NCBI GenBank assembly: GCA_963674965.2
Contig: CAXXFL010000001.1
Coordinates: forward strand, 1,550,739-1,614,738
Direction: 5' to 3'
DNA: 64,000 nucleotides
Origin: a bacterium
Lineage (GTDB): Bacteria; RBG-13-61-14; DATKZS01
A program made the position numbers and the translations under genes. Below are positions 12,516 through 61,879 of the stretch, one piece after another. Positions within the stretch are counted from its first letter, which is position 1. Every line of letters starts with the position of its first letter. Under the pieces are notes generated by a model that worked only from the letters and a program-made list of their open reading frames with translations, was not told the origin of the DNA and did not search any database.

Positions 12516-12570
12516 TAACTAAGTATAAACGCCGATATAAACGGCATATTTCGATAGAGGGAGGATTTGC

Positions 12571-13359: not shown

Positions 13360-13405
13360 AGGGTCTCGCCGGCCCGGGCGACGCGGCCGGGCCGGCTTCT
13401 AAACG

Positions 13406-14023: not shown

Positions 14024-14152
14024 ACCTGACCCCTCCTTCATCGAGATTACATTTATATATCACGCCCGGCCCCGCTTGGGAAGAAGAAAAAAGCCGCCCC
14101 GGCCATCTTTAGAAAGGCGGAGCGGCCCCCGTGGCCGGTTTATACCCGCGCG

Positions 14153-47090: not shown

Positions 47091-49183
47091 CCGTTATCTT
47101 GAAAAAAATCGAGGTCAGGCGCTTTAAGGGTCTCGCCGAGCTGGACCTCGAGTTGGGACCGGGACTCAACGTCGCGCGCGGGCCTAACGAGTCGGGCAAG
47201 AGCACGATCATCGAGGCTATATTGGCCGCGTTTTATTCGAGCCCTACCTCGAGGTCCCAGGCCTCGATCGAGATGATCTCATGGGGGCAGGAACAAGCGC
47301 CCTTTTTAGCCCTGGACCTCGAGGTGGATGGAAAACCCGCTCGCCTGGAAAAAGACTTCTCCAAACGTGACGTGGCCATTTTTGAGGACGGCCAGACAAT
47401 AAAAACGGCCAAGGCGGTAAAGGAATGGACGGCCCATAATCTCGGTCCCGCCACCAGGGAGCTTTTCGTCGCCACCGCCTGCCTCACGGAGGAAAGCTTC
47501 GCCATCCCCAGGATCACGGGCCAGGACCCGCGCGGCCGGGAGATTATGGACAGACTTCAGGCCACGCTGACGGGCGCTCCCGGCGGCAGCCCGGCCCAGG
47601 TCATAAAGCGCCTCAGGGAAAGACATCGGGCCATCGGCAAGAAGCCCGGGGTTAACGACCGGCAAGGAGGCCCTCTCACGGCGGCGAGAAACGAGATCGG
47701 GGAGGCCGATCGAAAAATCCAGGCGCTGCGCCTAAACCTCGAGGAATACGAAAAGGCTGAGGACCGCTTGACGGGAGTGGCCGAGAGGCTTTCGGCCCTC
47801 GAGACCAGGATGGGCGACCTTGACTCGGCGCTGCAAAACCACCTGGCCTTGATCGAGTCGGAAGACAGGATCACTGAAATCAAGGCCGCTCTCGATCGGC
47901 TCCTTAAAGCCGAGGCCCTGGCCGGCGAGCTGAAGCAAATGGAGGAGGAGATGAAGGCCTTCCCCGGCTTCGACGACCTGGGACCGGCGGCAAAGAGGCT
48001 GGCTGAAATCGTAGCCCTCCTGGATGAAATGGATAAGCATATCTCGAGCCTCGAGTACGAGAAAATCCAGGCCGCTATAAAACCTCCCGCCTATAACCCG
48101 ATCCTCGCCGCCGCTGCCTTGATCCTCTTGGCGTCCGGAACGGTGGCGGCGCTCTCGCTTAAGTCGGCCTGGCCGCTTCTAGCCGCGGGAGCGGCTTTGC
48201 CCCTTGCCGGGCTGGCGGCCTATTTCAAGTTTTCCTCCTCGTCGCGGGAGAGTAAAAGGCTGGCGGCCATTGCCCAGGAGATGGAAAGTCTGGTTTCCCG
48301 TCGTGATGAGATGGAGCGTGAGCAAAGGAGTATCGAGGAACGCTTTGGCAAAAGAGGCGCCAGGGAGTGCCTCGAGTCGTGGTCAACGTTCCATGAAATG
48401 AGACGCCGGATGGACTCTCTTATCGAAAGGATATCGGACCTGGCCGGCCCGGACGGGCTGAATAAGGGGATAACCGACTTGTCCTTGGCGGTAAGGACCG
48501 AGATGGAGCGGGCCAAGTCACTCGAGCCCTACCGGGTCAAGGACCCCTCGAGGCTGGCGGCCCTCGAGCGGGAGGCCCGGGAGGCGCGGGAGGAAATCGG
48601 GCGCCTGCGTGAGGACCGGGTCCGGACCGAGGCGCGGAAAACATCCCTGGACTTCGACCCCGAGGAGTTGATCGAGCTGGAGGAGGGCAGGGCCGAGCTG
48701 TCCCGCCGCGTTGAATATTGGGAGAGGACCGAGAGGGTCCACGCCAAGGCCCTGGCCATGATGGAGGAATCGGTCGAGGCGGTCCTGGCCAGGGCGGGCG
48801 AACTGATCGAGAAGGAGATGAATCCGCTCATGGCGGCGGTTACATCCGGACGCTACGAAAAGGTCAGGGCCGGCCATGACCTGGCCCTGTCCGTACTTGA
48901 CGGGAAAAGCGGACGCTGGGTGGATGAAAGGTTCCTCAGTCTGGCCACGCGGGAGCAGCTTCACCTGGCGGCGCGGCTGTCGCTGGTCAACCTCATCCTG
49001 GGAAAAGCGCGTCCGCCCGTGATCCTGGACGACCCCTTCGCCCATTACGACGATGAAAGGGCAAAAAAGGCGCTGGCCGTCATCAAGGAGTTCGCCAGGG
49101 GCCGGCAGGTGATACTCTTTACGCCAAGCCGCCGCCGCGAGGTCGCGGCGGACCTGGTGGCCAGGCTTGAGAGGATCGAGTAA
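47087..49183 (+). CDS. SMC/Rad50-like coiled-coil ATPase (YhaN/SbcE-like) with central TM hairpin
   Basis: Walker A GPNESGKST, long coiled coils, LSLATREQL.LA.RL, Walker B ILDDPF..YD..R; start overlaps the nuclease stop. Confidence 0.87.
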   Translation: MTVILKKIEVRRFKGLAELDLELGPGLNVARGPNESGKSTIIEAILAAFYSSPTSRSQASIEMISWGQEQAPFLALDLEVDGKPARLEKDFSKRDVAIFEDGQTIKTAKAVKEWTAHNLGPATRELFVATACLTEESFAIPRITGQDPRGREIMDRLQATLTGAPGGSPAQVIKRLRERHRAIGKKPGVNDRQGGPLTAARNEIGEADRKIQALRLNLEEYEKAEDRLTGVAERLSALETRMGDLDSALQNHLALIESEDRITEIKAALDRLLKAEALAGELKQMEEEMKAFPGFDDLGPAAKRLAEIVALLDEMDKHISSLEYEKIQAAIKPPAYNPILAAAALILLASGTVAALSLKSAWPLLAAGAALPLAGLAAYFKFSSSSRESKRLAAIAQEMESLVSRRDEMEREQRSIEERFGKRGARECLESWSTFHEMRRRMDSLIERISDLAGPDGLNKGITDLSLAVRTEMERAKSLEPYRVKDPSRLAALEREAREAREEIGRLREDRVRTEARKTSLDFDPEELIELEEGRAELSRRVEYWERTERVHAKALAMMEESVEAVLARAGELIEKEMNPLMAAVTSGRYEKVRAGHDLALSVLDGKSGRWVDERFLSLATREQLHLAARLSLVNLILGKARPPVILDDPFAHYDDERAKKALAVIKEFARGRQVILFTPSRRREVAADLVARLERIE

Positions 49184-49279
49184 GGATTGCCAAAGTCCGA
49201 AGGGCCTTTGCGGATATAGGGGCGTCGCGTTTGGCTGGGCGCCCGGACTTCAGGATTCTTGTAAGGGGGCTGACCTTTC

Positions 49280-49309
49280 TTGACAGGCGCGGGAGTTAGG
49301 AGTTATCAT
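49280..49309 (+). promoter_or_regulatory. Candidate sigma70 promoter of the hdr-nuo-met operon
   Basis: TTGACA (49280-49285), 18-nt spacer, TATCAT (49304-49309). Confidence 0.45.
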
Positions 49310-49646
49310 TAAATAAAGGCGGGAAGGGGTCGATATTCCGACGCGAGATCATTTCCCATGCAGTACCTCTTAATCCCATTCGGGAGCAGCCTTTTCGTCC
49401 GGCCAGGAAGTATGGCCGAGGAGGTCTTGGAAGTATAGCCGCGGGTCCAGTAATAAGCAGAAAAGTACGATCGGGTGAGGGTCATTAAGTCTCTCCGACT
49501 GACCTCAGCGTAAGAATTATTTCATCAACCGGTCCCCATCGCGAAGGCGCCGCCGTCCGGCCGGCGCTGGGGCGGCAAGGAGCGGGCGCAATTAAAAGGG
49601 GCGCTCGTTTCTCGGGGCCTGAAAAGAATCAAGGAGCGAAAAGATA

Positions 49647-50270
49647 ATGACGGCGCCAGTCCTTGAATTCAAACCGGAAAGCGCCAACGCCTTCGCCAGG
49701 GAGGTGATGGAGCGGTCCGGCCAGAACGTGTTCGCCTGCTATCAGTGCAGGCGCTGCGCCGCCGGTTGTCCGGTGGCTGAAGAAACGGGCTTCATAACCC
49801 CGGACCGCCTCGTCCGCATGGTCGTGCTCGGCGACAAGGGCGCGGCGCTGGAGAACGATCTGGTCTGGCGTTGCGTTTCCTGTTACACCTGCGGGACCCG
49901 TTGTCCCAACGACATCATGACGGGCAGGATCACGGAGACGCTCAAGAAGATGGCCAAGGAGGAGCACCGGGAGATACTTCGGCCTCGGGTGGCCCATTTC
50001 CACGACTCCTTTATGGGAAGCGCCCTTCGCTGGGGCAGGGTCAACGAGCTCGAGATGATGGGCTTCTACGAGATGAAGAACTTCTTCTCCGACGTCAAGC
50101 GCGGCGCGTACAAGGCCATCGTGGACGAGCTCATTTCCCAGGCCAAGAACTTCGGTCTTCCCATGCTCAAGGCCAAGCGCATGCACGTGGGTTTCGCCAG
50201 GTCCAAGGGGACCTCGGAGATAAAGGGCCTGATGAAAAAGGCCGAGCAAAAGAAAAAAGCCCACAAGTAA
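49647..50270 (+). CDS. hdrC: Heterodisulfide reductase subunit C-like 2x[4Fe-4S] protein
   Basis: CYQCRRCAAGCP and WRCVSCYTCGTRCP, F..S....GRVNE. Confidence 0.9.
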   Translation: MTAPVLEFKPESANAFAREVMERSGQNVFACYQCRRCAAGCPVAEETGFITPDRLVRMVVLGDKGAALENDLVWRCVSCYTCGTRCPNDIMTGRITETLKKMAKEEHREILRPRVAHFHDSFMGSALRWGRVNELEMMGFYEMKNFFSDVKRGAYKAIVDELISQAKNFGLPMLKAKRMHVGFARSKGTSEIKGLMKKAEQKKKAHK

Positions 50271-50300
50271 GGGCCGAATAATCCACCTCGGGAGCGAAAC

Positions 50301-51176
50301 ATGGATATAGCGTACTATCCCGGCTGCTCGTTGCAGGCGTCCCATAAGCTCTACGACTCGCAGAGCCATAAAATACTCGGGGCGCTCGACGTGAAACTTA
50401 TCGAGCTGGACGACTGGAACTGCTGCGGGGCGACCTCCGCGGGCAAGACCGACGACTTCCTCGCCGTGGCCCTGCCCGCCAGGAACATCGGAATAGCCGA
50501 GGCCTCGGGCCTGAAGGAGTTGGTCATCCCCTGCTCGGCCTGTTATTCCCGGACCCTGGTGGCCCAGTACAAGATGGAAAAAGACCCGTCCCTCAAGGAC
50601 GAGATCAACGGCGAGCTGAAAAAGAAGGTCGCCAAGGGCATAAAGGTCTCGACCATACTCGAGGTCATCCTGCCCCGCGTCGAGGCCGGCTACATGAACG
50701 ACAAGATTCAAAAGCCCCTCGCCGGCCTGAAGCCCGCCTGCTACTACGGATGCATGCTCACCCGCTTTCCCGTGGGCGTGGCCGCCTCGGACGACGTGGA
50801 GAACCCCAGGGGCATGGAAAAGATCATGGCCAAGCTCGGGGCCGAGCCCATCGACTGGAGCTACAAGACCGACTGTTGCGGCGCCTCGGCGGCGGTTAAC
50901 GACCAGGAGGCGGCCTTCAACATGATGGGCCGGATTATGAAGGACGCCGCGGCCAGGGGCGCCAACTGCTTCGTCACCACCTGCCCCATGTGCCAGATGA
51001 ACCTGGACATTAACCAGGAGCAATACTGCGACAGGGTCGGGGTCTGCGAGAGGCTTCCGGTCTACTTCATTACCGAGATGATGGGCGTCGCCATGGGCAT
51101 GAGCCCCAGGGACCTCGAGATAGACAAACATTTCACGGAAAGCATTAACCTCTTAAAGGAGCTTAGTCTGGCATGA
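50301..51176 (+). CDS. hdrB: Heterodisulfide reductase subunit B-like (two CCG domains)
   Basis: YYPGC, DWNCCGA, PCSAC, YYGCML, TDCCGA, TCPMCQMNLD. Confidence 0.93.
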   Translation: MDIAYYPGCSLQASHKLYDSQSHKILGALDVKLIELDDWNCCGATSAGKTDDFLAVALPARNIGIAEASGLKELVIPCSACYSRTLVAQYKMEKDPSLKDEINGELKKKVAKGIKVSTILEVILPRVEAGYMNDKIQKPLAGLKPACYYGCMLTRFPVGVAASDDVENPRGMEKIMAKLGAEPIDWSYKTDCCGASAAVNDQEAAFNMMGRIMKDAAARGANCFVTTCPMCQMNLDINQEQYCDRVGVCERLPVYFITEMMGVAMGMSPRDLEIDKHFTESINLLKELSLA

Positions 51177-52057
51177 GCGACAATAACGACGGCGGCGGAA
51201 AGAAACGCGGCTCGGTCCTTATCGCGGGCGGCGGCATCGGAGGAATGCAGGCCGCGCTCGATCTGGGCGACAGCGGATTCAAGGTTCACATGGTCCAAAG
51301 AGACGCGTCGATCGGCGGGACCATGGTCAAGCTGGACAAGACCTTTCCAACCGGCGACTGCGCCATGTGCATGATCTCGCCCAAAATGGTCGAGGTGGGA
51401 AGGCATCCGAACGTCAATATCATTAGCATGGCCGAGATCATCGACGTGGGCGGCGTGCCCGGCGACTTCAAGGTCAAGATTCGGCAGAAGGCCAGGAGCG
51501 TCAACCCCGACCTTTGCACCGGATGCGGCGCCTGCACCCGGGCCTGCCCGGTGAGAAACGTCATCGACGTCCCCCGGCCCGCGGCCCCGCCCCCCCTCGA
51601 GGCGGAAATGGAGACGGCCCTGACCGAGATAGTCGAGGCCCACGACGGCGACAAGGCCGCCCTTATCACCATACTCCAGGACGTCAACGAGAAGTTCAAA
51701 TACCTGCCCCAGGAGATGCTGGCCCACCTGGCCGTGAGGCTCGGCATTCCCGAGACGCATATACTTTCGGTGGCCACCTTTTACAACGCCTTCAGCCTCA
51801 TTCCCGTGGGAAGGCACATCATCGAGCTTTGCTCGGGCACGGCCTGCCACGTCAAGGGCGCGGGCCGTCTTCTGGACCGCCTGCGGGAGCAACTGAAAGT
51901 CGAGGCGGGCCAGACCACGGCCGACCAGAGGTTCACGCTCCGCACCGTCAACTGCATAGGCTGCTGCGCCCTGGCCCCCGCCATGAGGGTGGACGGCGAG
52001 GTCTACGGATACGTTAAGGTCTCCGAGCTGCCGGCCATACTCAAAGACCATCCCTGA
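51173..52057 (+). CDS. Fusion: HdrA N-terminal FAD-binding segment + NuoE/HydC-type [2Fe-2S] domain
   Basis: Residues ~13-128: GGGIGGMQAALDL, IGGTMVKLDKTFPTGDCAMC, HPNV, CTGCGACTRACP (HdrA). Residues ~145-294: LITILQDV...YLP, VATFYNAF, CSGTACHVKG, VNCIGCCALAP (NuoE). Confidence 0.9.
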   Translation: MSDNNDGGGKKRGSVLIAGGGIGGMQAALDLGDSGFKVHMVQRDASIGGTMVKLDKTFPTGDCAMCMISPKMVEVGRHPNVNIISMAEIIDVGGVPGDFKVKIRQKARSVNPDLCTGCGACTRACPVRNVIDVPRPAAPPPLEAEMETALTEIVEAHDGDKAALITILQDVNEKFKYLPQEMLAHLAVRLGIPETHILSVATFYNAFSLIPVGRHIIELCSGTACHVKGAGRLLDRLREQLKVEAGQTTADQRFTLRTVNCIGCCALAPAMRVDGEVYGYVKVSELPAILKDHP

Positions 52058-52070
52058 GGAGGACGCCCGA

Positions 52071-53945
52071 ATGGAACCTATAAAGAACCTGGAGGAGTTA
52101 CAGTCCCTTCGCGACCGCATCGTCGCCGGCAGGGACGAGAACCAGCTTCTCATTACCGTGTGCGCCGGCACCGGCTGCCTCTCGAACGGCTCGGCCAAGG
52201 TGGCCGCGGCCCTGAAAGAGGAGCTTGACGCCGCCGGACTTAAGGGAAGGGTCGAGCTTAAGACCACCGGCTGCCACGGGTTCTGCGAGCGCGGGCCCAT
52301 AGTGGTCGTCGAGCCCGCGGGCATCCTGTACCAGGCGGTGGGCAGGAAGAAGCTGGAAAAGGACGTGAAGGAAATCGTCGAGTCGCTGGCCGAGGGGGCC
52401 GAGCCGGTCGAGAGGCTCTTCTACAAGGACCCCGAGACCAAGAAGTCCATCAGGGGATACGAGGAGATACCCTTTTACGCCAAGCAAAAACGGGTCGCCC
52501 TTCGTAACAACGGGATCATCGATCCCACCAGGATCGAGGACTTCATAGCACGGGGCGGCTACGGGGCGCTGGCCAAGGCCCTTCAGATGACGCCCGAGGA
52601 AATCATCGCCACCCTCAAGGAGTCGACCCTGCGCGGACGAGGGGGGGCCGGCTTTTTGACCGGACAGAAATGGGAGTTCTGCCGCCGGGCCGAGGGTTTC
52701 CCCAAGTACATTATCTGTAACGCCGACGAGGGAGACCCGGGCGCGTTCATGGACCGCTCGATCATGGAGGGGGACCCCCACTCGGTCATCGAGGGAATGC
52801 TCATCGGCGCCTACGCCATCGCCGGAGGGCAGGGGCCCATCCAGGGTTACGTTTACGTCCGGGCCGAGTACCCGCTGGCGGTCCAGAACCTGACCACGGC
52901 TTTGAAGCAGGCCAAGGAGTACGGGTTCCTGGGCGAGAATATTTTGGGGACCGACTTCAGCTTCGATATTAAGCTCAACAAGGGCGCCGGCGCCTTCGTG
53001 TGCGGCGAGGAAACGGCCCTTATGGCCTCGGTGGAGGGCCGGCCGGGACTTCCCCGGACCAGGCCTCCCTTCCCCGCCAACAAGGGACTCTTCGGCAAGC
53101 CCAGCAATATAAACAACGTCGAGACCTTCGCGGCCGTTCCCGTCATTGTCGACCGGGGACCGGACTGGTTCAAGAGCGTGGGCGTGGACAGGAACGGGGG
53201 CACCAAGGTTTTCAGCCTGGTGGGCAAGGTCAACAACACGGGCCTGGTCGAGGTGCCCATGGGCACGAGCATCAGGGAGGTCGTCTTCGGCATCGGGGGC
53301 GGCATCCAGGGGGGCAAGAAGTTCAAGGCCGTGCAGACCGGCGGTCCCTCCGGCGGCTGCATACCCGAGTCGCTCATCGACCTTCCCCTTACCTACGAGG
53401 GCCTGATGGAGGCCGGGTCGATCATGGGCTCGGGCGGCATGATCGTGGTGGACGAGGAAACCTGCATGGTGGACGTGGCCCGCTACTTCCTCAAGTTCGT
53501 CACCGAGGAGTCCTGCGGGAAATGCGTTCCCTGCCGGGAGGGCACCAAGCACATGCATGAAATCCTCGAGCGCATCTGCGCGGGCGAGGGAAAAGAGGGC
53601 GACATCGAGACCCTCGAGAGGCTGGGCAAGGCCATCGCGGCCACGTCGCTTTGCGGCCTGGGCCAGACGGCCCCCAACCCCACGCTCTCGACCATCAAGT
53701 ATTTCCGCGACGAGTACGAGGCCCACATCAAGGACAAGAGATGTCCGGGCGGCGTATGCAAGGCGCTCATAACCTATCGGATAGACCCGGATGCCTGCAC
53801 GGGCTGCGGAGTTTGCGCCCGTAACTGCCCGGTCGAGGCCATCTCGGGAGAGAAGAAACAGCCGCACCAGCTTGACGCCTCGAAGTGCGTCAAGTGCGGG
53901 GCTTGCCGCGAGAAGTGCAAGTTCGGCGCCGTGATCATCGACTAA
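52071..53945 (+). CDS. NuoF/HydB-type FMN- and NAD(H)-binding subunit with N-terminal [2Fe-2S] and C-terminal 2x[4Fe-4S] domains
   Basis: CAGTGC...GCHGFCERGP, LRGRGGAGF, CNADEGDPGAFMDR, GAGAFVCGEETAL, ESCGKCVPCREG, SLCGLG, CTGCGVCARNCP, CVKCGACREKC. Confidence 0.95.
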   Translation: MEPIKNLEELQSLRDRIVAGRDENQLLITVCAGTGCLSNGSAKVAAALKEELDAAGLKGRVELKTTGCHGFCERGPIVVVEPAGILYQAVGRKKLEKDVKEIVESLAEGAEPVERLFYKDPETKKSIRGYEEIPFYAKQKRVALRNNGIIDPTRIEDFIARGGYGALAKALQMTPEEIIATLKESTLRGRGGAGFLTGQKWEFCRRAEGFPKYIICNADEGDPGAFMDRSIMEGDPHSVIEGMLIGAYAIAGGQGPIQGYVYVRAEYPLAVQNLTTALKQAKEYGFLGENILGTDFSFDIKLNKGAGAFVCGEETALMASVEGRPGLPRTRPPFPANKGLFGKPSNINNVETFAAVPVIVDRGPDWFKSVGVDRNGGTKVFSLVGKVNNTGLVEVPMGTSIREVVFGIGGGIQGGKKFKAVQTGGPSGGCIPESLIDLPLTYEGLMEAGSIMGSGGMIVVDEETCMVDVARYFLKFVTEESCGKCVPCREGTKHMHEILERICAGEGKEGDIETLERLGKAIAATSLCGLGQTAPNPTLSTIKYFRDEYEAHIKDKRCPGGVCKALITYRIDPDACTGCGVCARNCPVEAISGEKKQPHQLDASKCVKCGACREKCKFGAVIID

Positions 53946-53961
53946 GATAAAGGAGCCTTCC

Positions 53962-56900
53962 ATGAGTGAAGAGACCGTTACTTTCACCATCAACGACGAG
54001 GAGGTCGTCGCCAAAAAGGGCGCCACCATCCTCGACGTGGCCCGGGAAAAGAACATCTGGATACCGACCCTTTGTTTCCACGAGTCGATGGAGCCCGAGG
54101 GTTCCTGCCGCTTGTGCCTGGTCGAGGTCGAGGCCTTCGGCCGGCGGCGCATGGTCACGAGCTGCGGCTACCCCGTCGAGGACGGGATCAAGGTCTATAC
54201 CGACACCGAGCAAGTGGTCGAGAGCCGCAAGGTGGTGGCCGAGCTGCTTTTGGCCCGGTGCAGCGAGAACGAAAAGATAATCGAAATCGCCGCCAAGCTG
54301 GGAGTCGATACCACGCCTTTCACCAAGAAAACGGAAGACTGCATGCTTTGCGGCCTTTGCGTCCAGATGTGCCATCAGAAGATGAAGATCGGGGCCATCG
54401 GGTTCGTGGGAAGGGGAAGCGAGCGCAAGGTCACGACCCCCTACGACAAGTACTCCCAGACGTGCATCAACTGCGGCGCCTGCGAGTTGATCTGCCCCAC
54501 CAACGCCATCACCGCCTTCGGCAACTCGGGCAAGAAGCCCGTTCCCCACGGCAAGGAGTTCGAGGAGAACCTGGCCACCCGCGGAAACATAGACATACCA
54601 TTCCCCTCGGCCGTGCCGCTTTTGCCCAGCATCGACCGCGAGAACTGCGTCAGGTTCCAGGTGGGTGGAGACGCCTGCGGCGTGTGTTCGGAGACCTGTC
54701 CCGCCGGGGCCATCGACTTCGCCCAGGGCGACGTCGAGAGGGAACTGGACGTGGGCGCCCTTATCCTCTGCCCGGGCCTGGACCGCTACGACGCCAGGGC
54801 AAGGGGAGAACTCGGGTTCGGACGCTGGCCCAACGTGATCAGCTCGATCCAGTTCGAGCGCATACTGTCGGCCTCGGGGCCCTACCAGGGGCACGTCACC
54901 AGGCCGGGAGACGGAAAACATCCCCGGAAAATCGCCTGGATTCAGTGCGTGGGATCGCGTGACAACCATAACGCCAACCCCTGGTGCTCCTCCGTTTGCT
55001 GCATGTACGCCACCAAGCAGACGGTCATCGCCAGGGAGCACGACTCGAACATCGAGCCCACCATCTTCTACATGGAGATGAGGGCCTTCGGAAAAGAGTT
55101 CGACCGATACGTGGACCGGGCCAAGAACGAGTACGGCGTCCGCTACCAGCGGGCCATGGTCAGCGCCATCCGCGAGGAGCCGGGAACGGGGAACCTCGTT
55201 CTTCGCTATTCCAAGGAGAACGGCGAGGTCCTGGACGAGGTGTTCGAGATGGTGGTCCTGTCCGTAGGGTTCCAGCCCCATGAGGACGCCAAGGAGTTCG
55301 CCAAGATAGCGGGGATCGAAACCAACGAATACCTATTCCCCAAGACCTCCCAGTTCAAGCCCGTCGAGTCGAGCCGTCCCGGCGTGTTCGTGACCGGCAT
55401 CTACCAGGGGCCCAAGGACATCCCCGAGACGGTGATGCAGGGAAGCGCGGTGGCGGGCGGGGCCATGGCCCTTCTCGGCGAGGCCCGGGGAACGGAGATA
55501 ATTGAAAAGGAACTTCCGCCGGAAAAGGACATCGTGGGCGAGGACCCGAGGGTCGGCGTTTTCGTGTGTCATTGCGGCATCAACATCGCCTCCACGGTGG
55601 ACGTGGCCCGGGTGGTCGAGAACGTAAAGGACGAGCCCGGCGTTTGCCACTGCGAGAACGTGCTTTACGCCTGCTCGCAGGACACGCAGGAGAAGATCAA
55701 GGCCATCATCGAGGAGAAGAAACTCAACCGGGTCCTGGTCGCCTCGTGCACGCCCCGCACGCATACTCCTCTTTTCCAGGAGACCCTGCGCGACGCCGGG
55801 CTTAACAAGTACCTTTTCGAGTTGGCCGACATCCGGGAGCAGTGCTCGTGGTGCCACATGGGCAAGAGGGAGGAGGCCACGAAAAAGGCCACCACCATCG
55901 TCAAGATGACCCTGGCCAAGGTCAATAACCTCCAGCCCGTGCGGACCGACTCGGTGCAGGTGACCCCCGCGGCCATGATCATCGGCGGCGGAATAGCGGG
56001 CATGACCACCTCCCTGGCCCTGGCCGACCAGGGCTACGACGTCCATATCGTCGAGCAGGCGGGCAAGCTGGGCGGCCTGGCGCTGGGCGTTTACCGGACC
56101 CTTGACGGAAGCGACGTGCAGGCCTTCGTTAAGTCCCGGATCGCCGAGGTCGAGGCCCATCCAAGGATCAAGGTCCACCTGGGCGTCCAGGTGAAGAACA
56201 CGGACGGGTTCGTGGGCAACTTCAAGACCACCCTGACCGACGGCTCGAGCTTCGAGCACGGAGCCATCGTCGTGGCCTCGGGCGGCGTCGAGTACGAGCC
56301 CACCGAGTATTGTTATAATGACAGCGACAAGATCATAACCCAGCGGGAGTTGGAGAAGAGGCTCGAGAGCGAGCCGGCCAAATCGGGCGAAAGCTACGTT
56401 ATGATCCAGTGCGTGGGCAGCCGCGAGGAGCCGGCCAATTACTGCTCCCGCGTGTGCTGTCAGGACGCGATCAAGAACGCCATCCGGATCAAGGAGAACG
56501 CTCCCGGCGCTCAGGTGACGATCCTCTATCGGGACATCCGGACCTACGGCCTGCGGGAGGATTATTACAAGAGGGCCAGGGACCTCGGCGTTTTCTTCAT
56601 CCGCTACGACGTGGACAAGAAGCCGGAGGTCGAGGTCTCGGGCGACAAGATCAAGATCAAGACCTTCGATTACATGCTCGACCGCGAGATATCCATGGCG
56701 GCCGACCACCTGGTGCTCTCGACCGGGCTTCGGCCTCATCCGCTAACCGACAAGATAGGCAAGCAGTACAAGCTCACGCGCAACGCCGACGTGTACTTCC
56801 TGGAGGCCCACCCCAAGCTTCGGCCGGTGGACTTCGCCTCGGAGGGTCTTTTCATGGCCGGCCTCGCCCACGCTCCCAAGAACCTGGACGAGACGGTGAG

Positions 56901-57210
56901 CCAGGCCCTGGCCGCCGCGGGCCGGGCGGGCGTGCTTTTATCGCACGTGAGCCTGGCGGTGTCGGGCGTGATCTCGAAGCACAACCGGGACATCTGCATG
57001 AGTTGCCTGTCCTGTTTCCGTATCTGTCCTTTCGACTCGCCTTATATCGACGAGGACGGCAAGGTCAGTCACAACGAGGTAAAATGCATGGGCTGCGGAC
57101 TTTGCGCGGGCATCTGCCCGGCCAAGGCCTTCCAGGTGAACTATTTCCGCGACGACCAGATACTGGCCATGGTGGACGCCTATGGAGACGAGATATGTCC
57201 GCTTCCGTGA
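53962..57210 (+). CDS. Fusion: short NuoG/HydA-N-type FeS domain + remainder of a tandem (two-FAD-module) HdrA
   Basis: IPTLC...GSCRLCLVEV...TSC, CMLCGLCVQMC, CINCGACELICP, then HdrA motifs IPFPSAVP, FERILSASGP, IQCVGSRD, CSSVCCMYATK, GPKDIPETV, VGVFVCHCGINIA, IIGGGIAGM, second IQCVGSR/CSRVCC, EAHPKLRPV and terminal ferredoxin motifs. Confidence 0.92.
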   Translation: MSEETVTFTINDEEVVAKKGATILDVAREKNIWIPTLCFHESMEPEGSCRLCLVEVEAFGRRRMVTSCGYPVEDGIKVYTDTEQVVESRKVVAELLLARCSENEKIIEIAAKLGVDTTPFTKKTEDCMLCGLCVQMCHQKMKIGAIGFVGRGSERKVTTPYDKYSQTCINCGACELICPTNAITAFGNSGKKPVPHGKEFEENLATRGNIDIPFPSAVPLLPSIDRENCVRFQVGGDACGVCSETCPAGAIDFAQGDVERELDVGALILCPGLDRYDARARGELGFGRWPNVISSIQFERILSASGPYQGHVTRPGDGKHPRKIAWIQCVGSRDNHNANPWCSSVCCMYATKQTVIAREHDSNIEPTIFYMEMRAFGKEFDRYVDRAKNEYGVRYQRAMVSAIREEPGTGNLVLRYSKENGEVLDEVFEMVVLSVGFQPHEDAKEFAKIAGIETNEYLFPKTSQFKPVESSRPGVFVTGIYQGPKDIPETVMQGSAVAGGAMALLGEARGTEIIEKELPPEKDIVGEDPRVGVFVCHCGINIASTVDVARVVENVKDEPGVCHCENVLYACSQDTQEKIKAIIEEKKLNRVLVASCTPRTHTPLFQETLRDAGLNKYLFELADIREQCSWCHMGKREEATKKATTIVKMTLAKVNNLQPVRTDSVQVTPAAMIIGGGIAGMTTSLALADQGYDVHIVEQAGKLGGLALGVYRTLDGSDVQAFVKSRIAEVEAHPRIKVHLGVQVKNTDGFVGNFKTTLTDGSSFEHGAIVVASGGVEYEPTEYCYNDSDKIITQRELEKRLESEPAKSGESYVMIQCVGSREEPANYCSRVCCQDAIKNAIRIKENAPGAQVTILYRDIRTYGLREDYYKRARDLGVFFIRYDVDKKPEVEVSGDKIKIKTFDYMLDREISMAADHLVLSTGLRPHPLTDKIGKQYKLTRNADVYFLEAHPKLRPVDFASEGLFMAGLAHAPKNLDETVSQALAAAGRAGVLLSHVSLAVSGVISKHNRDICMSCLSCFRICPFDSPYIDEDGKVSHNEVKCMGCGLCAGICPAKAFQVNYFRDDQILAMVDAYGDEICPLP

Positions 57211-57282
57211 GGAATATAACGTCGGATTTGCGATCGGACGTAAGGAACCAACTTTTCGAATACAAGGAGGGAGGATCGGGTA

Positions 57283-57786
57283 ATGGTTGAAGAAGCCCAG
57301 GCCGCGGCCGCCGAGGAGGTGTCCTCGATCGAGCCGCCGCGGGAAATCCCGCCGGATTGGGAACCCAACATTCTGGCTTTCGCTTGCCACTACTGCGCCT
57401 TTTCCGCGGCGGACCTGGCCGGAGTGATGCGGTTGTCCTACCCGACAAGCGTGAAGATCATCCGGCTGCCATGCACCGGGAAACTGGACCATATCTACGC
57501 CCTCAGGGCGCTGGAAAAGGGGGTGGACGGCGTTTTCGCCGCCGGGTGACTGCCCGGGCAATGTCATTTCCTGGAAGGAAATACGCACGCGAGAAAAAGG
57601 GTCGAGCGCCTGAAAACTCTCTTGCCCTCGGTCGGACTGGACCCGGGCAGAGTGGAAATGTACAACCTGTCGGCCGCCGAGGGTCCGAGGTGGGCCGCCA
57701 TTTGCACCGAGTTTACCCAGAGAATCAAAAAACTCGGTCCGTCCCCCGTATATCTGGCCAAATGCCGGAATGCCAAGAAGGAGTAA
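57283..57786 (+). CDS. mvhD: MvhD-like [2Fe-2S] subunit, selenoprotein (UGA at 57547-57549)
   Basis: FACHYCAFSAADLAG, IRLPCTGK, GVDGVFAAG-U-LPGQCHFLEGN..A.KRV...VGLDPGRVEMYNLSA...IKKLGPSP; the UGA occupies the conserved Cys position; real stop TAA at 57784-57786. Confidence 0.92.
57566..57582 (+). promoter_or_regulatory. Bacterial SECIS-like hairpin
   Basis: ATTTCCT-GGA-AGGAAAT perfect stem with a G-first apical loop 23 nt downstream of the UGA. Confidence 0.7.
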
Positions 57787-57792
57787 GGGAAT

Positions 57793-58491
57793 ATGATTGT
57801 CGGCAAACAAAAACCTCTTGACGAGATCTGGGAGATGATCAAGGGCTATAAAAAAGTCCTGGTCTTCGGATGCAACACCTGCGTGGCCGTCTGCCATGAG
57901 GGCGGGAACAAGGAAGCCGAAATCCTGGCGTCCCTCCTCCGGATGAAGGCCACGCAAGAGGGCGTTGAGATACAAATCAACGACAGCGGCATCGAGCGGC
58001 AATGCGAGCACGAGTACTTCGAGAAGGCCCGCGAGATCATCGGCGAACACGACGCCGTGTTAAGCATTGCCTGCGGGGCCGGGATACAGTTTTTAGGCGA
58101 GAAGTTCCCCGAGACCATTATCCTGCCCGGGCTCAACACCACCTTCATCGGGGTGGTCGACGCCCCCGGCGAGTTCACCGAGAGATGCCTCATGTGCGGC
58201 GACTGCATACTCCATCTTACCGGCGGCATCTGCCCCATCGCCCGCTGCTCGAAGTCCATCATGAACGGACCCTGCGGCGGCAGCGAGAACGGGGTGTGCG
58301 AGGTCAACCCGGAGGTCCCCTGCGGCTGGCAGCTCATTTACGACCGGCTGAAGGGGCAGGGAAGGCTCGAGCTTCTCGATCAGGTTATTCCCGCCAAGAA
58401 CTGGATCACCTCCCGCGACGGGGGACCGAGAAAGCAGGTGCGCGCGGACCTGGCGGACATCAAGGAGGCCACCGATGGCGGAGCAGACTAA
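57793..58491 (+). CDS. metV: Methylene-THF reductase small FeS/Zn subunit MetV
   Basis: GCNTCVAVC..GG, ERQC, ACGAGIQ, ERCLMCGDC.L..TGGICPIARCSKSIMNGPCGG...G.CEV....PCGWQLIYDRL. Confidence 0.92.
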   Translation: MIVGKQKPLDEIWEMIKGYKKVLVFGCNTCVAVCHEGGNKEAEILASLLRMKATQEGVEIQINDSGIERQCEHEYFEKAREIIGEHDAVLSIACGAGIQFLGEKFPETIILPGLNTTFIGVVDAPGEFTERCLMCGDCILHLTGGICPIARCSKSIMNGPCGGSENGVCEVNPEVPCGWQLIYDRLKGQGRLELLDQVIPAKNWITSRDGGPRKQVRADLADIKEATDGGAD

Positions 58492-59437
58492 TCTCGAAAG
58501 GGTCTTTAACGAGGGCAAGTTCGCCGTAACCGGCGAGCTGGGACCGAAGCGGGGCGTTGACGTCGAGCATCTTCTCAAGATGGCCGAGATGATGAAGCCC
58601 TTTTGCGACGCCTTCAACATCACCGACAACCAGACGGCCGTGGTGCGGCAGTCGTCCATTGGAACGGGCATCCTCATCAAGAGCAAACTCGACATGGACC
58701 CCGTCGTCCAGATCGTGTCCCGCGACAGGAACCGGCTGGCCATCCAGGCCGACGTGCTGGGCGCCGCGGCCCACGGCCTGGGCAACGTGCTCTGCCTTTC
58801 CGGTGATCACCAGACCCTGGGCAACCATCCCGGCGCCAAGAACGTGCACGACATCGACTCGATCCAGATGCTGGCCGGGCTCAAGGGGATGACGGAGGGC
58901 AAGTTCATGAACGGCGACGACATCGAGGGCGAGCCGCCTCACCTCTTCCTCGGGGCCGCCATCAACCCCTTCGGGCACCCCATGGAATTCAGGGTGACCA
59001 GGCTGGCCAAGAAGGCGGCCGCCGGCGCCCAGTTCGTGCAGAGCCAGCCGGTCTTCGCCATGGACGTCTTCAAAAAGTACATGGCCGACGTGGTCAACAG
59101 GGGAATAAACGAGAAGTGCCACGTCATGGCGGGCATCATCCCCATGAAGAGCATCATGATGGGCAAGTACATGCGGGACAAGGTCGCCGGAGTCATGGTC
59201 CCCGACGAAAAAATCGAGAGGCTGCAAAAGGCCGCCGACCAGTTCACCGAGAAGGCCGACCGAATCAAGGCGGTCAGGGAAGAGGCGGTGAAGATATCGG
59301 TCGAGGAGATCAGGCAGTGCATCGAGATACCCGGCGTTCACGGCGTGCACATCATGGCCGTGGCCTGGGAGGAGATCATCCCCGAGATAGTCAAGCGGGC
59401 CGAGCTGGACAAGTCCAGGCCCGACTACAAGAAATAA
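58475..59437 (+). CDS. metF: Methylenetetrahydrofolate reductase MetF (MetV-associated type)
   Basis: FAVTGELGP, NITDNQTAVVR, RDRNRLAIQAD.LGA, LCLSGDH, KKAAAGAQF.QSQ, GVHGVHIMA. Confidence 0.93.
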   Translation: MAEQTNLERVFNEGKFAVTGELGPKRGVDVEHLLKMAEMMKPFCDAFNITDNQTAVVRQSSIGTGILIKSKLDMDPVVQIVSRDRNRLAIQADVLGAAAHGLGNVLCLSGDHQTLGNHPGAKNVHDIDSIQMLAGLKGMTEGKFMNGDDIEGEPPHLFLGAAINPFGHPMEFRVTRLAKKAAAGAQFVQSQPVFAMDVFKKYMADVVNRGINEKCHVMAGIIPMKSIMMGKYMRDKVAGVMVPDEKIERLQKAADQFTEKADRIKAVREEAVKISVEEIRQCIEIPGVHGVHIMAVAWEEIIPEIVKRAELDKSRPDYKK

Positions 59438-59457
59438 TATTATCCGGTATTGACTCG

Positions 59458-59492
59458 AACGCGCCGTCCTTTTTTCGGGCGGCGCGTTTTTT
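59458..59492 (+). terminator. Rho-independent terminator after metF
   Basis: AACGCGCCGTCC-loop-GGGCGGCGCGTT followed by TTTT. Confidence 0.8.
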
Positions 59493-59519
59493 CGATGGAT
59501 ATGCGGACGCCCGCGCGGG

Positions 59520-59897
59520 TCATGGAATGCCCAAGAGGCTTTTGGCCGTGTCCAGCACGTGTCCGGCCTGGATGGGCTTGGTGATATAGGCGTCGGCCCC
59601 GAGGGTGAGCGCCCTCTCCCTGTCCTCGGCCGCTCCCTCGGTGGTGATGATCATGATGGGAATATTCCTGTAGCTCACGTCGCGTCTCACGATGCCGATC
59701 AGCTTCAGGCCGTCCATGACGGGCATGTTGATGTCGGTTATGATAAGGTCGAAGGAGTCGGAGTTGATTTTTTTCAGTCCCTCCACTCCGTCCCCCGCCT
59801 CGACGATTTCCGCCCCAGGCAGCCTTTTGAGAGCGAACGCTATTAGTTGACGCATTGTGGGGGAATCCTCAACCACGAGAATTTTTACCGGGGCCAT
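59520..59897 (-). CDS. Single-domain CheY-like response regulator
   Basis: ILVVEDS, IITDINMPVMDG, IITTEG, YITKP. Confidence 0.93.
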   Translation of the reverse strand: MAPVKILVVEDSPTMRQLIAFALKRLPGAEIVEAGDGVEGLKKINSDSFDLIITDINMPVMDGLKLIGIVRRDVSYRNIPIMIITTEGAAEDRERALTLGADAYITKPIQAGHVLDTAKSLLGIP

Positions 59898-59920
59898 TTC
59901 AATATTTACCTCACCGCCTG

Positions 59921-60796
59921 TTATTTCGTGGACTTCAACATCTCCATGAAGCCCTCGATCGTCTCAAGCTTGCGCCTGGCGTCGGAGTAGAGCTTGGTGG
60001 AGAAGATGGCCGTCGCCGCGTGTCCGGCCAAAAGCGTGAAAAGCTCGTAATCGACGTGAGCGAATTGAGTCTTCTGGGGTAAAAGCTTGTAAAGAACGAT
60101 CACGCCGATCACGCTTTCCTTGATTTTCAGGGGTATGCAGACCAGGGGATTTCCGGGAGGCCGCTTCTGGTTGATGAGCGCCGTCTCGATGCTGGGATCG
60201 AAGTAATTCTCCCCGCTTTTAAAGGTCTTGCCGATAATGCCTTCCCCGACTCGAACGTCCCCCACCTCCTCCTTGGACATGCCCTCCATGGCGACCGTTT
60301 TCAAAGTGTAGGTCTTTTCGTCCAGGAGCATGATCCCGAAGTCCTCGGCCCCGATGAGGTTGATGACGATCTCCATGATGATCTGGATGACCTCGTCGAA
60401 GTCGAGGGTCGAGTGAAGCTGGAAGGAGCAGACGTACAAGTTGGTAAGGTTGTTGTTTTCCTCCTCGATCTCGACGTAGCGGGCGGCGTAGGTCTTGTTG
60501 TTTTCCTCGACGCCCTGGTACTCCGAGAGGAGACGGTTTTTTTCAAGCTCGAGCTCGGTTATCTGACGCTTGAGCACCTCGGCCCGGCCTCCCCGCCCGG
60601 TGGCCGCGAAAAGGCTCCGGTTCTCCTCCTGAAGCTGGACCATCCGGTAGCGAAGCTTCTCGTTCTCCTCCATCAACTCCTTGATGAAGGACATGGACCT
60701 GTCCATGAGCTGGAGGATTTCCTCGGGACGCGGGAAGTCCCTCGGGTCCATTTTAGGGTCCGGCTTGTCGCCGCGCCGTATGTCGTCGTCATTCAC
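59921..60796 (-). CDS. Coiled-coil + GAF domain protein of the chemosensory cluster
   Basis: N-terminal heptad region, EEENNNLTNLYVCSFQLHSTLDF, GEGIIG, CIPLKI...IGVI, DYELFTLLAGHAATAI. Confidence 0.85.
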   Translation of the reverse strand: MNDDDIRRGDKPDPKMDPRDFPRPEEILQLMDRSMSFIKELMEENEKLRYRMVQLQEENRSLFAATGRGGRAEVLKRQITELELEKNRLLSEYQGVEENNKTYAARYVEIEEENNNLTNLYVCSFQLHSTLDFDEVIQIIMEIVINLIGAEDFGIMLLDEKTYTLKTVAMEGMSKEEVGDVRVGEGIIGKTFKSGENYFDPSIETALINQKRPPGNPLVCIPLKIKESVIGVIVLYKLLPQKTQFAHVDYELFTLLAGHAATAIFSTKLYSDARRKLETIEGFMEMLKSTK

Positions 60797-60811
60797 GGTG
60801 TTTTCTCCCGC

Positions 60812-61879
60812 CTACCTCGAGCGGCATCTGGACATGATGGCGGCCGGGATGTCCTCAAGGTTAAGTATCTCGTCCACCATTTTCGTGTTGATAACTTCCC
60901 GGGGCATGCCGAAGACGATCGAGGTCTTTTCCGACTCGGCAATGATGGACCCGCCCGCTTCCTTGATGATTTTAGCGCCGTCCGAGCCGTCATTGCCCAT
61001 ACCCGTTAATACCACGGCCAGGCACCTTTCTGCAAACGTCTCCGCCGCCGAGCCGAACATGGCGTTGACGGAGGGAACGTACTTGTCCTCCTCGCTCTTC
61101 TCGACCACCGCCGCCACCGCCCTGTCGCCCTTCTTACGCGCCAGGAGGTTCATGCCGCCGGGGGCCACCAAAACCGTGCCTATCTCGATGGGGTCCCCGT
61201 CCTCCGCCTCCTTGACCCGAAGGTTCGAGTTCTTGTCCAGGCGCTCGGAAAAGGCCCTCGTAAAGCCCTGGGGCATATGCTGACTGATAAGCACCGCCGC
61301 GTCAAGCTTCTGGGGCAAGGAACCCAGGACCGACTGGATGGCCGACGGCCCGCCGGTGGAGGCCCCGATCACCACCACGTCGGCCTTGGGTTTTCCCTCT
61401 TCGCGGACGGCCCCGGCGGCCATCCTCGAGGTGGGGGCGGTGAGAGCGCTGATCCTTCTTTGCACGTTCCGGAACTTGAGTTCCCTCACCACCTTGAGCT
61501 TGGAGGCCAACTCCATTTGCAGGGTCTCGGGCGATCTCAGATGGTTGCTGGGCTTGGCCAGGAAGTCGATGGCGCCCAGCTCGAGGGCCTTGAACACGTT
61601 TTTGTTCTCGCTCCGGGAGGAAATGACCAGCACCGGAGTGGGAAGGCTTTTCATGATAATCCGGAGAAAGGTAAAGCCGTCCATCCTGGGCATCTCCAGG
61701 TCGAGGGTGATAAGGTCGGGCTTGGAGTCGAAGGCCTTTTTGATGCCCTCCTCACCGTCGCGAGCCACGCCCACGACCTTGCCCAATCCCGAGTTGTCCA
61801 CGATCTCGGATATGGTCCTCCTGTTGAAGGCCGAGTCGTCAACCACGAGCACCCGTATCAAATGGTCACTCACGGCCAC
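60812..61879 (-). CDS. cheB: Chemotaxis response regulator protein-glutamate methylesterase
   Basis: REC domain (VVDDS, TLDLEMP), IGASTGGP, QHMP, PSVNAMF, VLTGMGNDG, FGMP. Confidence 0.95.
   Translation of the reverse strand: MAVSDHLIRVLVVDDSAFNRRTISEIVDNSGLGKVVGVARDGEEGIKKAFDSKPDLITLDLEMPRMDGFTFLRIIMKSLPTPVLVISSRSENKNVFKALELGAIDFLAKPSNHLRSPETLQMELASKLKVVRELKFRNVQRRISALTAPTSRMAAGAVREEGKPKADVVVIGASTGGPSAIQSVLGSLPQKLDAAVLISQHMPQGFTRAFSERLDKNSNLRVKEAEDGDPIEIGTVLVAPGGMNLLARKKGDRAVAAVVEKSEEDKYVPSVNAMFGSAAETFAERCLAVVLTGMGNDGSDGAKIIKEAGGSIIAESEKTSIVFGMPREVINTKMVDEILNLEDIPAAIMSRCRSR

Follow-up and report, generated by a model that had tools for sequence, protein, structure and literature searches.

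We analyzed a 64,000-nucleotide (nt) stretch of a bacterial contig (CAXXFL010000001.1, positions 1,550,739 to 1,614,738; hereafter the window, whose own numbering is used throughout) in which eight tightly packed genes on the + strand, spanning 49647–59437, form one operon (Table 1). It is an operon of the Hdr-type methylene-tetrahydrofolate reductase (MTHFR) kind, MetF–MetV–MvhD–HdrABC, with a built-in Bfu module. True to that kind, metV precedes metF, and mvhD, hdrC, and an hdrB with two CCG domains share the operon. Where an Hdr-type MTHFR has six subunits with a single-chain HdrA, HdrA is here encoded in two pieces, which together with bfuB brings the gene count to eight. The gene order and the single + strand operon had been proposed in an initial annotation made from the DNA alone, and both are borne out by the open reading frames (ORFs) and Pfam domains. 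The hdrC product is 62–65% identical to HdrC in orthologous operons of genomes G001, G002, and G004, while MetV and MetF are 83% and 75% identical, respectively, to their counterparts in G001 and G002.

The signals at the gene junctions are intact. The hdrB stop codon overlaps the start of the gene for the 294-amino-acid (aa) fusion protein in an ATGA (51173–51176), a ribosome-binding site (GGAGGA) lies 8 nt 5' of the bfuB ATG at 52071, and another (AAGGAG) lies 6 nt 5' of the ATG at 53962, which begins the gene for the 1082-aa fusion protein. These are the three signals from which the initial annotation had concluded that hdrA is not frameshifted, and all of them were found.

Table 1. Genes, protein parts, and putative signals of the operon, in positions of the 64,000-nt window
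Feature	Position	Strand	Size or residues	Basis or marks
Promoter-like site, ~340 nt upstream of hdrC	49280..49309	+		Consensus scan; TTGACA-18-TATCAT, 11/12
hdrC, 4Fe-4S dicluster	49647..50270	+	207 aa	Pfam Fer4_8/Fer4_17
hdrB, two CCG domains	50301..51176	+	291 aa	Pfam CCG, 2 stretches, E 9e-21
HdrA1 N-piece::BfuC (NuoE) fusion	51173-52057	+	294 aa	Pfam FAD_oxidored, Fer4, 2Fe-2S_thioredx
HdrA1 N-piece	51173..51574	+	1-134 of 294 aa	GGGIGG, DKTFPTGDC63AMC66, first insert Cys motif C115-C125-P
BfuC/NuoE/HydC-like [2Fe-2S] part	51611..52057	+	147-294 of 294 aa	2Fe-2S_thioredx, E 5e-46
bfuB, NuoF/HydB-type FMN/NAD(H) subunit	52071..53945	+	624 aa	Pfam and chain alignments
BfuA (NuoG N-part)::HdrA1 C-piece::HdrA2 fusion	53962-57210	+	1082 aa	Pfam and phmmer
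BfuA/NuoG N-part	53962..54531	+	1-190 of 1082 aa	Fer2_4; [2Fe-2S] and two [4Fe-4S]
HdrA1 C-piece	54544..55521	+	~195-520 of 1082 aa	C229, C239, C242, C246; E299, K352, CSSVCC
HdrA2, second complementary HdrA module	55540..57210	+	in 1082 aa	phmmer
mvhD, in-frame TGA 57547-57549 read as selenocysteine	57283..57786	+	167 aa	Translation
metV	57793..58491	+	232 aa	Pfam DUF5981 / MTHFR C-terminal (PF12225), E 5e-37
metF, 17-nt overlap with metV	58475..59437	+	320 aa	Pfam MTHFR (PF02219), E 5.5e-29
Intrinsic-terminator-like hairpin, imperfect GC stem, then T-run, 3' of metF stop	~59458..59493	+		By eye

HdrA was mapped with phmmer against 5ODC_A, the HdrA of Methanothermococcus thermolithotrophicus. 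Residues 15–132 of the 294-aa protein correspond to 5ODC_A 146–259 (E 5e-40), and residues 178–453 of the 1082-aa protein to 5ODC_A 256–511 (205 bits). Because the second range takes over at the end of the first, the large gene resumes where the small piece stopped; the initial annotation had placed this point near residue 195 of the large protein, close to the alignment start at 178 (5ODC_A 256). On this alignment, the cut in HdrA1 falls within its inserted ferredoxin domain, between the first and the second Cys motif. The cut site is the canonical low-potential electron exit of HdrA, and its position constrains the wiring of the complex. Pfam assigns FAD_oxidored (15–52), Fer4 (110–127), and 2Fe-2S_thioredx (151–292) to the 294-aa protein, and Fer2_4 (4–82), Fer4 motifs, Pyr_redox_2 (672–932), and a C-terminal dicluster to the 1082-aa protein. 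The marks of a 5ODC-type HdrA are all found: a TrxR-like flavin adenine dinucleotide (FAD) domain with GxGxxG and the Lys/Glu residues, an insert with two Cys motifs (here on separate polypeptides), and complementary N- and C-terminal domains.

The large protein had been taken to carry only the rest of the interrupted HdrA. This did not hold, as a second HdrA module (HdrA2) follows the first, with residues 527–758 corresponding to 5ODC_A 2–234 and residues 939–1072 to 5ODC_A 511–647. HdrA2 has neither the ferredoxin insert nor the DCxxC motif and is the sole bearer of the N- and C-terminal domains. Conversely, HdrA1 is devoid of those terminal domains and carries the insert together with the equivalent of Cys197, which is C66 of the 294-aa protein. 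Complementarity between Cys197 and the N-terminal domain has been described as the signature of a fused or tandem HdrA that forms its own heterodimer (Chadwick et al. 2022, PMC9012536), and BamE of class II benzoyl-CoA reductase (BCRII) has been given the same fused-dimer reading (bioRxiv 10.64898/2026.04.10.717634). By these alignments, the HdrA encoded here is a fused pseudo-heterodimer of HdrA1 and HdrA2.

The two modules differ at the flavin. Conservation was read from 27 diverse homologues of the 294-aa protein and 32 of the 1082-aa protein. K352 and E299 of HdrA1 correspond to K409 and E356 of 5ODC_A, which we take to be functional residues of the HdrA flavin site, and both are present in 32/32 homologues; K838, the HdrA2 counterpart of the Lys, is present in only 25. 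This difference fits one bifurcating and one non-bifurcating FAD. BamE, likewise, has been described with one FAD of each kind and a Lys at the flavin N5 (bioRxiv 10.64898/2026.04.10.717634).

The cassette inserted at the cut supplies all parts of a Bfu module: a B subunit with the flavin mononucleotide (FMN)/NADH site and the cluster set, and C and A parts as fusion domains. The BfuC part is joined to the HdrA1 N-piece by a Pro-rich linker; its residues 147–291 correspond to 9mqx_C 4–148 and also align to the HydC chain 8a6t_C. Three of its Cys (C220, C225, and C265) occur in 27/27 homologues and the fourth, C261, in 25/27. The BfuA part (residues 18–187) corresponds to 9mqx_A 17–187, a short NuoG-like chain. 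Its twelve Cys (C38/49/52/68, C127/130/133/137, and C168/171/174/178) are invariant in 32 homologues, no His-ligated cluster motif was found in this part of the 1082-aa protein, and the cluster set matches that of the type-2 Bfu class, which includes BamI and WOR-Bfu.

Whether this module bifurcates or only confers NADH specificity can be judged in part from bfuB. Its product carries an N-terminal 2Fe-2S domain, Complex1_51K, SLBB, NADH_4Fe-4S, and a C-terminal dicluster (Pfam), and matches B subunits of both NiFe and FeFe bifurcating hydrogenases along its whole length (7t2r_B, 7q4v_B, and 8a6t_B; E 1e-245 to 1e-237), with 7t2r_B as the best B-chain match (E 1e-245); 9mqx_B aligns too. Every cluster Cys motif is aligned with the HydB chains, including the N-terminal [2Fe-2S] and the C-terminal extension, two features that separate bifurcating Bfu from non-bifurcating NuoF relatives (Schut et al. 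2022, PMC9304861). By these alignments, the NuoF-like subunit is of the full-length HydB/BfuB type. Both the end-to-end likeness and the retained cluster features argue against an alternative in which the NuoEFG-like proteins form a plain, non-bifurcating diaphorase that gives the enzyme NADH specificity, as RnfC2 does in Acetobacterium woodii, with no ferredoxin at the Bfu part. Points that speak for a diaphorase are the occurrence of NuoEFG genes upstream of metFV as the unstudied 'X type' (Yi et al. 2021, PMC8515935) and the fact that the alternative plug-in at the same site, described below, is an NAD(P)H-binding domain. On balance, we regard the diaphorase as improbable. The initial proposal of a HydABC-like NAD(H) module and two potentially bifurcating flavin sites gains support from all that we computed, the HydB-type B subunit included.

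The two halves of HdrA1 appear fit to reassemble. In addition to their complementary 5ODC_A ranges, all cluster Cys of the small piece (C63, C66, C115, C118, C121, and C125) are present in 27/27 homologues, and those of the large protein (C229, C239, C242, C246, C329, C342, C346, and C347) are invariant in 32/32. We co-folded residues 1–140 of the 294-aa protein with residues 190–525 of the 1082-aa protein in three runs, alongside three controls. Each run gave an ipSAE of 0.89, while the best of the controls reached 0.00; the models had 349–367 contacts with at least 93% contact agreement between runs and a partner pLDDT of 86 or more. Of 157 solved complexes, 116 attained the mark applied, as did 2 of 215 mismatched pairs, a calibration that is rough since the alignments were our own. 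Contacts are closest where residues 264–270 of the large protein pair as strands with residues 15–18 and 99–101 of the small one, as expected of a continuous Rossmann sheet, and the model brings both Cys motifs of the ferredoxin insert together. We infer from the model, which passes its controls, that the halves would rebuild one FAD domain in trans, in line with what had been proposed at the outset.

The split layout is widespread across many phyla. A search with the 294-aa fusion returned 4665 matches at E ≤ 0.001; the best 120 of these all combine PF01257 with an HdrA-type FAD or Fer4 family, and are mostly 285–320 aa long with 78–100% coverage. For the 1082-aa fusion (residues 1–540 as the query), the best 120 of at least 8000 candidates are 1012–1154 aa long with 99–100% coverage. 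The full fusion is present in 21 of the 79 species-representative genome loci listed, drawn from Spirochaetota, Bacillota, Acidobacteriota, Planctomycetota, Thermodesulfobacteriota, Myxococcota, Cloacimonadota, Thermoplasmata, and others, and in 30 of the 79 metagenome loci listed, 12 of which encode it at 65–72% identity to that of the window. BfuB is followed by BfuA::HdrA in all 18 genome loci that reach far enough.

The search of other genomes suggested by the initial annotation, for the HdrA(N)-NuoE/NuoF/NuoG-HdrA(C) triplet beside metVF, was successful. The metV or metF gene lies within the locus in 5 of the 21 fusion-bearing genome loci (L009, L014, L018, L020, and L082), and mvhD-metV-metF follows in 4/4 of the close (65–72%) metagenome loci that extend past the large gene (L124, L125, L127, and L145). 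L127 holds the entire eight-gene operon at 66–80% identity. Other split-type loci have [NiFe]-hydrogenase subunits, Flx-like NAD-binding proteins, or an FrhB-like protein alongside, and a shorter variant in which a single HdrA is split occurs in L023, L024, L026, and L102. In three split-type loci (L011 11310–14399, L015 11329–14397, and L026 10932–14102), BfuB is C-terminally fused to Fer4_20 and Pyr_redox_2 domains (GltD/NfnB-like; 1022–1056 aa), which brings both kinds of pyridine-nucleotide module into one system. Two further loci (L013 13119–15905 and L017 13148–15914) have small genes between bfuB and bfuA::hdrA, with CBS, histidine-kinase-like ATPase, and PHP domains, that look like a sensory or regulatory insert.

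This recurrence bears on the least favorable account of the locus, namely that it encodes two separate co-transcribed enzymes or a decaying or mis-assembled hdrA, with the N-piece as a non-assembling remnant. The bare interruption of hdrA is all that speaks for it. Set against this are the 21 genome and 30 metagenome loci with the same arrangement, the catalytic and cluster residues of both pieces that are invariant across 27 and 32 diverse homologues, the translational coupling or ribosome-binding sites at all junctions, and the co-fold that passes its controls. Moreover, contigs of the public runs X1 and X2 cover 49200–53010 and 53462–57138 with 0 differences and bridge every junction, although these runs are possibly from the source sample of the window and thus do not count as independent support. 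We consider this account highly improbable; mis-assembly and pseudogene readings in particular were weighed and rejected on these grounds. Two other runs (X3 and X4) cover small shares only (0.13 and 0.10) as short contigs. X4, a metatranscriptome from another study, contributes short contigs that are 98–100% identical to several genes, one of which crosses the bfuB/bfuA junction.

Close relatives reveal what else can occupy the same spot. Among 30 relatives of the window's genome, the full fusion is found only in two distant ones (related at the level of 'same domain'), and in 0/4 of the same family and 0/6 of the same order. The same-family genomes G001 and G002 instead hold orthologous hdrC-hdrB-hdrA-mvhD-metV-metF operons (62–83% identity). 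In G001, HdrA is one unsplit 1020-aa chain, 70% identical to the N-piece of the window (over residues 9–129 of the G001 chain) and 69% identical to residues 166–1080 of the large protein. In G002, it is a 1476-aa chain with Fer4_20 and Pyr_redox_2 domains (NfnB/GltD-like) inserted in-frame just after the first ferredoxin motif, and a full-length Pyr_redox_2 was found in the insert of 15/15 further 'insert' forms scanned. Linkage to mvhD-metV(-metF) is seen in many unsplit forms and in at least 9 of the 16 insert forms checked, G002 among them. An NfnB-like insertion of ~500 aa in the inserted ferredoxin domain has been described for HdrA9–11 of ANME-1 (Chadwick et al. 2022, PMC9012536). New here are orthologous operons within one family in which HdrA is either unsplit or, at the position of the split, carries an in-frame NAD(P)H domain. 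In our reading, the ferredoxin insert of HdrA is an evolutionary socket for low-potential partners that is left empty, filled with an NfnB/GltD-like domain, or filled with the BfuCBA cassette.

Trees were built from the HdrA region behind the socket, with split, unsplit, and insert as states. A 92-row FastTree required at least 16 state changes and a 37-row IQ-TREE quick tree required 7, counts in which the trees do not separate gain from loss of the split state. Constraining the 22 split rows of the 37-row set to one clade cost 974 log-likelihood units (p-AU 1.3e-39). On these HdrA trees, then, the split forms are not one clade; the window falls in a well-supported split group nested among unsplit forms of Nitrospirota, Desulfobacterales, and its own family. 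A possible unfused intermediate is found in Desulfocapsaceae, where three loci (L046, at 28–1886 and 10001–15221; L037; and L029), including one from the cultured Desulforhopalus singaporensis, combine an unsplit hdrA-mvhD-metV-metF with a free-standing NuoEFG-like set 3–8 kb away. The free-standing NuoF of L037 and L046 is 62–65% identical to the BfuB of the window over a partial alignment (~410–445 of 624 residues), above any split genome locus, while that of L029 is 52% identical over its full length. We also considered whether DNA likeness between the two ferredoxin-motif sites that flank the cassette points to a recombination mechanism, and rejected this, as the identical stretch of 12 nt is too short.

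These observations suggest how the complex may be wired. In methanogen HdrA, electrons enter from MvhD via the C-terminal ferredoxin domain and reach the FAD, and the low-potential arm ends at free ferredoxin. As mvhD is encoded beside metV and metF, the methylene/methyl-tetrahydrofolate (THF) couple should use the MvhD entry. HdrBC would form the high-potential arm, with a thiol/disulfide partner. The low-potential arm would here be closed to free ferredoxin and would lead from the split ferredoxin insert to BfuA and on to a BfuBC core that exchanges electrons with NAD(H) and ferredoxin; in sister operons with an empty socket, free ferredoxin is a possible partner, as in the methanogen enzyme. 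The strongest argument that the insert arm talks to low-potential carriers is that sister operons hold an unrelated NAD(P)H module there. Each of the two clusters in the ferredoxin insert would probably be ligated by Cys from both polypeptides, as would the FAD-proximal cluster and, via C66, the cluster of the HdrA2 N-terminal domain. We propose that, with ligation shared in this way, assembly would therefore be obligatory and 1:1. That an HdrA-embedded HydBC/Bfu-type NAD(H)/ferredoxin module is wired to an Hdr-type MTHFR at the split insert is, judged on the sequences, the best explanation of the operon, and one we consider reasonably probable.

A different wiring would follow the example of BCRII, in which BamGHI confurcates, BamF (MvhD-like) relays, and BamE bifurcates in that order (bioRxiv 10.64898/2026.04.10.717634), a series arrangement proposed earlier by Schut et al. 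(PMC9304861). Applied here, the Bfu module would confurcate NADH and reduced ferredoxin and serve, as Mvh hydrogenase does, as mid-potential donor for the HdrA FAD, which would bifurcate to methylene-THF (through MvhD–MetVF, as a high-potential arm) and to an HdrBC acceptor, leaving the fusion at the insert as a tether only. The BfuA part agrees with such an arrangement, in that it has no His-cluster motif and has the [2Fe-2S] and two [4Fe-4S] clusters of the type-2 BfuA/BamI class. Three points count against it. MvhD, encoded beside metV and metF, docks on the C-terminal ferredoxin domain in canonical HdrA, whereas Bfu is attached covalently to the other, low-potential arm. The NfnB-like NAD(P)H domain found in the same insert of sister operons argues that the insert arm talks to pyridine nucleotides. 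Finally, MetVF (~ −200 mV) and HdrBC are both high-potential, so a bifurcation fed at ~ −400 mV would be without a low-potential outlet. We therefore judge the series arrangement unlikely.

Several considerations temper our preferred explanation of a Bfu module wired to the low-potential arm at the insert. The co-fold may pass because the predictor remembers single-chain HdrA structures, in which case the score reflects likeness and not binding. It also omitted residues 1–189 of the 1082-aa protein, which places competition between the protein's own C168–C178 motif and the N-piece motif outside its reach, and by BLASTP the first ferredoxin motif of the unsplit orthologue aligns with both. We think that C168–C178 is no competitor, because it pairs with C127–C137 in the BfuA fold and all four motifs are invariant. 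The trees are FastTree or quick trees, the test of the split group was set after the first tree had been seen, and the number of state changes may be too high if the HdrA copies, of which a genome has several, include paralogues or have undergone gene conversion. Expression of the operon is weakly hinted at by the short X4 contigs, for which DNA carry-over is possible. The electron flow, the stoichiometry, and the HdrB substrate are all features that we infer from sequence. Coupling would need an HdrBC acceptor near 0 mV by our own arithmetic, and no such acceptor was identified in the operon. Lastly, in BCRII, the only characterized enzyme to unite the two kinds of module, the Bfu-type module enters at the mid-potential entry through the MvhD-like adaptor rather than via the insert; fusion at the insert is in itself no proof of the electron path.

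The rest of the genome offers a plausible metabolic setting. It encodes dsrA (597 bits, above the cut-off) and an adjacent, weaker dsrA paralogue (120 bits, below the dsrA cut-off) that we take to be dsrB, the dsrA model being the one used. An acetyl-CoA synthase CdhC domain is present in a 743-aa ORF. Together, the dsrA/dsrB-like genes and acetyl-CoA synthase make a role in the oxidative or reductive Wood–Ljungdahl pathway of a sulfate reducer plausible. The genome also holds two further MTHFR systems (G000:C1:889228-890058 and G000:C1:605635-606381, the latter locus L112), an E. coli-type MetF (266 bits) and a second MetV–MetF pair; the second pair is 36% identical to that of the window and has no Hdr or Nuo genes within 10 kb. 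Additional long HdrA-like frames (846–1211 aa), one with an in-frame TGA, lie at G000:C6:509554-517681 and G000:C2:371212-378475, making the operon one of several Hdr systems in the genome. Speculatively, the complex would couple methyl-THF oxidation (or, in reverse, methylene-THF reduction) to NAD(H) and ferredoxin, with a higher-potential HdrBC substrate bearing the energetic cost. DsrC-type disulfides, known from the Flx–Hdr literature, are candidate HdrBC acceptors. A broader version of our proposal is tentative and, in our estimate, has a modest chance of being right: the insert would be a general socket whose partner modules have been swapped repeatedly, and the Bfu-filled complex would run two bifurcations in cascade, turning methyl-THF oxidation into NADH and reduced ferredoxin, paid for by a high-potential disulfide, such as that of DsrC, at HdrBC.

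The in-frame TGA of mvhD was read as selenocysteine (Sec), as the initial annotation had it, because the codon is conserved and the genome encodes selB (378 bits versus a curated cut-off of 242). The TGA is at the same position in the G001 and G002 orthologues, and Cys stands there in 7 more distant homologues. Folding of the region downstream of the TGA (57540–57610) gave small hairpins with a z-score of −0.28, which speaks neither for nor against a selenocysteine insertion sequence (SECIS). An Rfam scan of 49100–59600 at E up to 1 gave a single chance-level match, to a long non-coding RNA; neither a riboswitch in the ~340-nt leader (49310–49646) nor a SECIS family appeared at that threshold. 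In the split-type operon of a Desulfobacteraceae member (L020 6845–7240), MvhD has its in-frame TGA at another Cys position (CCHF*GY). Given the differing TGA positions of L020 and the window family, Sec may have been placed twice in MvhD.

The promoter-like site upstream of hdrC is a weak hint, as the consensus scan returned 5 such sites versus 2.5 expected in shuffled sequence. For the terminator proposed initially, a hairpin and T-run can be read by eye beyond the metF stop; the consensus terminator scan, whose 15 matches were not above the 11.1 in shuffles, does not list this hairpin. The flanks of the operon are unrelated to it. Upstream lie Trk potassium-uptake genes and, at 45933–49183, an SbcCD-like pair (a Metallophos nuclease and a 698-aa SMC-like ATPase), followed by a 460-nt spacer before the operon. 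Downstream, on the opposite strand, is a chemotaxis-type signaling cluster (59520–63797) of a single-domain response regulator, a GAF protein, a CheB methylesterase, and a 643-aa HEAT-repeat::CheR fusion with the HEAT repeats N-terminal.

The reduction of methylene-THF, or the oxidation of methyl-THF, is the step of the Wood–Ljungdahl pathway with the least understood energy coupling. To our knowledge, the second electron partner of the Hdr-type MTHFR has remained unknown since 2014. From the operon and its sister forms it can be seen what the low-potential arm carries in nature: no module at all, an NAD(P)H domain, or an entire NADH/ferredoxin bifurcating module. These are three natural, ~70% identical versions of one enzyme, which makes the partner question testable by comparison. 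The split design occurs in many uncultured phyla, together with hydrogenases, Flx-like proteins, or MetVF, and its mechanism would therefore matter for the cycling of carbon and hydrogen in digesters and anoxic sediments. If the complex does run two bifurcations in cascade, a long-recognized energetic bottleneck of the oxidative Wood–Ljungdahl pathway would be removed, and the partner 'missing' from the Moorella-type enzyme could be assigned to a class.

Among known systems, the closest in gene content is the '6S type' MetFV–HdrABC–MvhD of Moorella thermoacetica, which has the same gene set (hdrC, hdrB, hdrA, mvhD, metV, and metF) in one operon and likewise two HdrA FAD modules. G001 and many unsplit orthologues from metagenomes resemble this type. 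In the window, by contrast, HdrA1 is in two pieces, BfuC, BfuB, and BfuA sit at the cut, the genes number eight rather than six, and an FMN/NAD(H)/ferredoxin module is dedicated to the complex. The methylene/methyl-THF couple lies at ~ −200 mV (PMC8515935, PMC5861303), and the Moorella enzyme has been described with 2 FAD in HdrA and a second acceptor that is still unknown (PMC5861303). In the 'X type' MTHFR, called widespread and speculated to be bifurcating, metFV is preceded by genes for NuoEFG homologues; examples are from Dethiosulfatarculus sandiegensis, Desulfobacterales, and Chloroflexi (Yi et al. 2021, PMC8515935). The passages of that paper on the type make no mention of Hdr subunits, MvhD, or a split or fused HdrA and report no experiment. 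It is probably the same operon type as that of the window.

HdrA9–11 of ANME-1 (PMC9012536) resemble the split form in having a pyridine-nucleotide-linked, potentially bifurcating module at the same site of the same domain, on the low-potential arm. There, the NfnB-like insertion is in-frame and HdrA remains one chain, whereas the window has a three-gene insert, two chains, and an unrelated HydBC/NuoEFG-type module. As for the module itself, WOR-Bfu (9mqx) and NiFe-Bfu (7t2r), both type 2, share full-length likeness with BfuB and BfuC of the window, and a BfuA with [2Fe-2S] and two [4Fe-4S] clusters is common to both. Among the Bfu classes listed in PMC9304861, none joins its A and C subunits to HdrA halves, and the words 'MetF' and 'methylene' are absent from its main text and one supplement. 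In the literature searched, whose coverage of HdrA-module reviews is incomplete, we found no description of an HdrA split by a Bfu cassette.

The closest system in architecture is BCRII of Geobacter metallireducens, Bam[(BC)2DEFGHI]2, which likewise unites a HydBC-type module (BamGHI) and a fused-dimer HdrA (BamE) in one complex, with the confurcating HydBC-type module feeding the HdrA-type module (bioRxiv 10.64898/2026.04.10.717634). According to the same source, it also comprises an HdrBC-like subunit and an MvhD-like adaptor with Sec, and its BamI has three clusters like the BfuA part of the window. In BCRII, however, the Bam subunits are separate, HdrA is unsplit, the Bfu-type module is docked via BamF, and the output is a tungsten-dependent reductase of aromatic rings. 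In the window, MvhD sits with MetVF, Bfu is fused at the ferredoxin insert, and no AOR-type BamB/BamC homologue was found among the eight operon products (by Pfam scans and, for mvhD, by its translation). The split form would force the 1:1 assembly of two different bifurcating machines; no other known kind of enzyme would chain them, save the benzoyl-CoA reductase reported in 2026.

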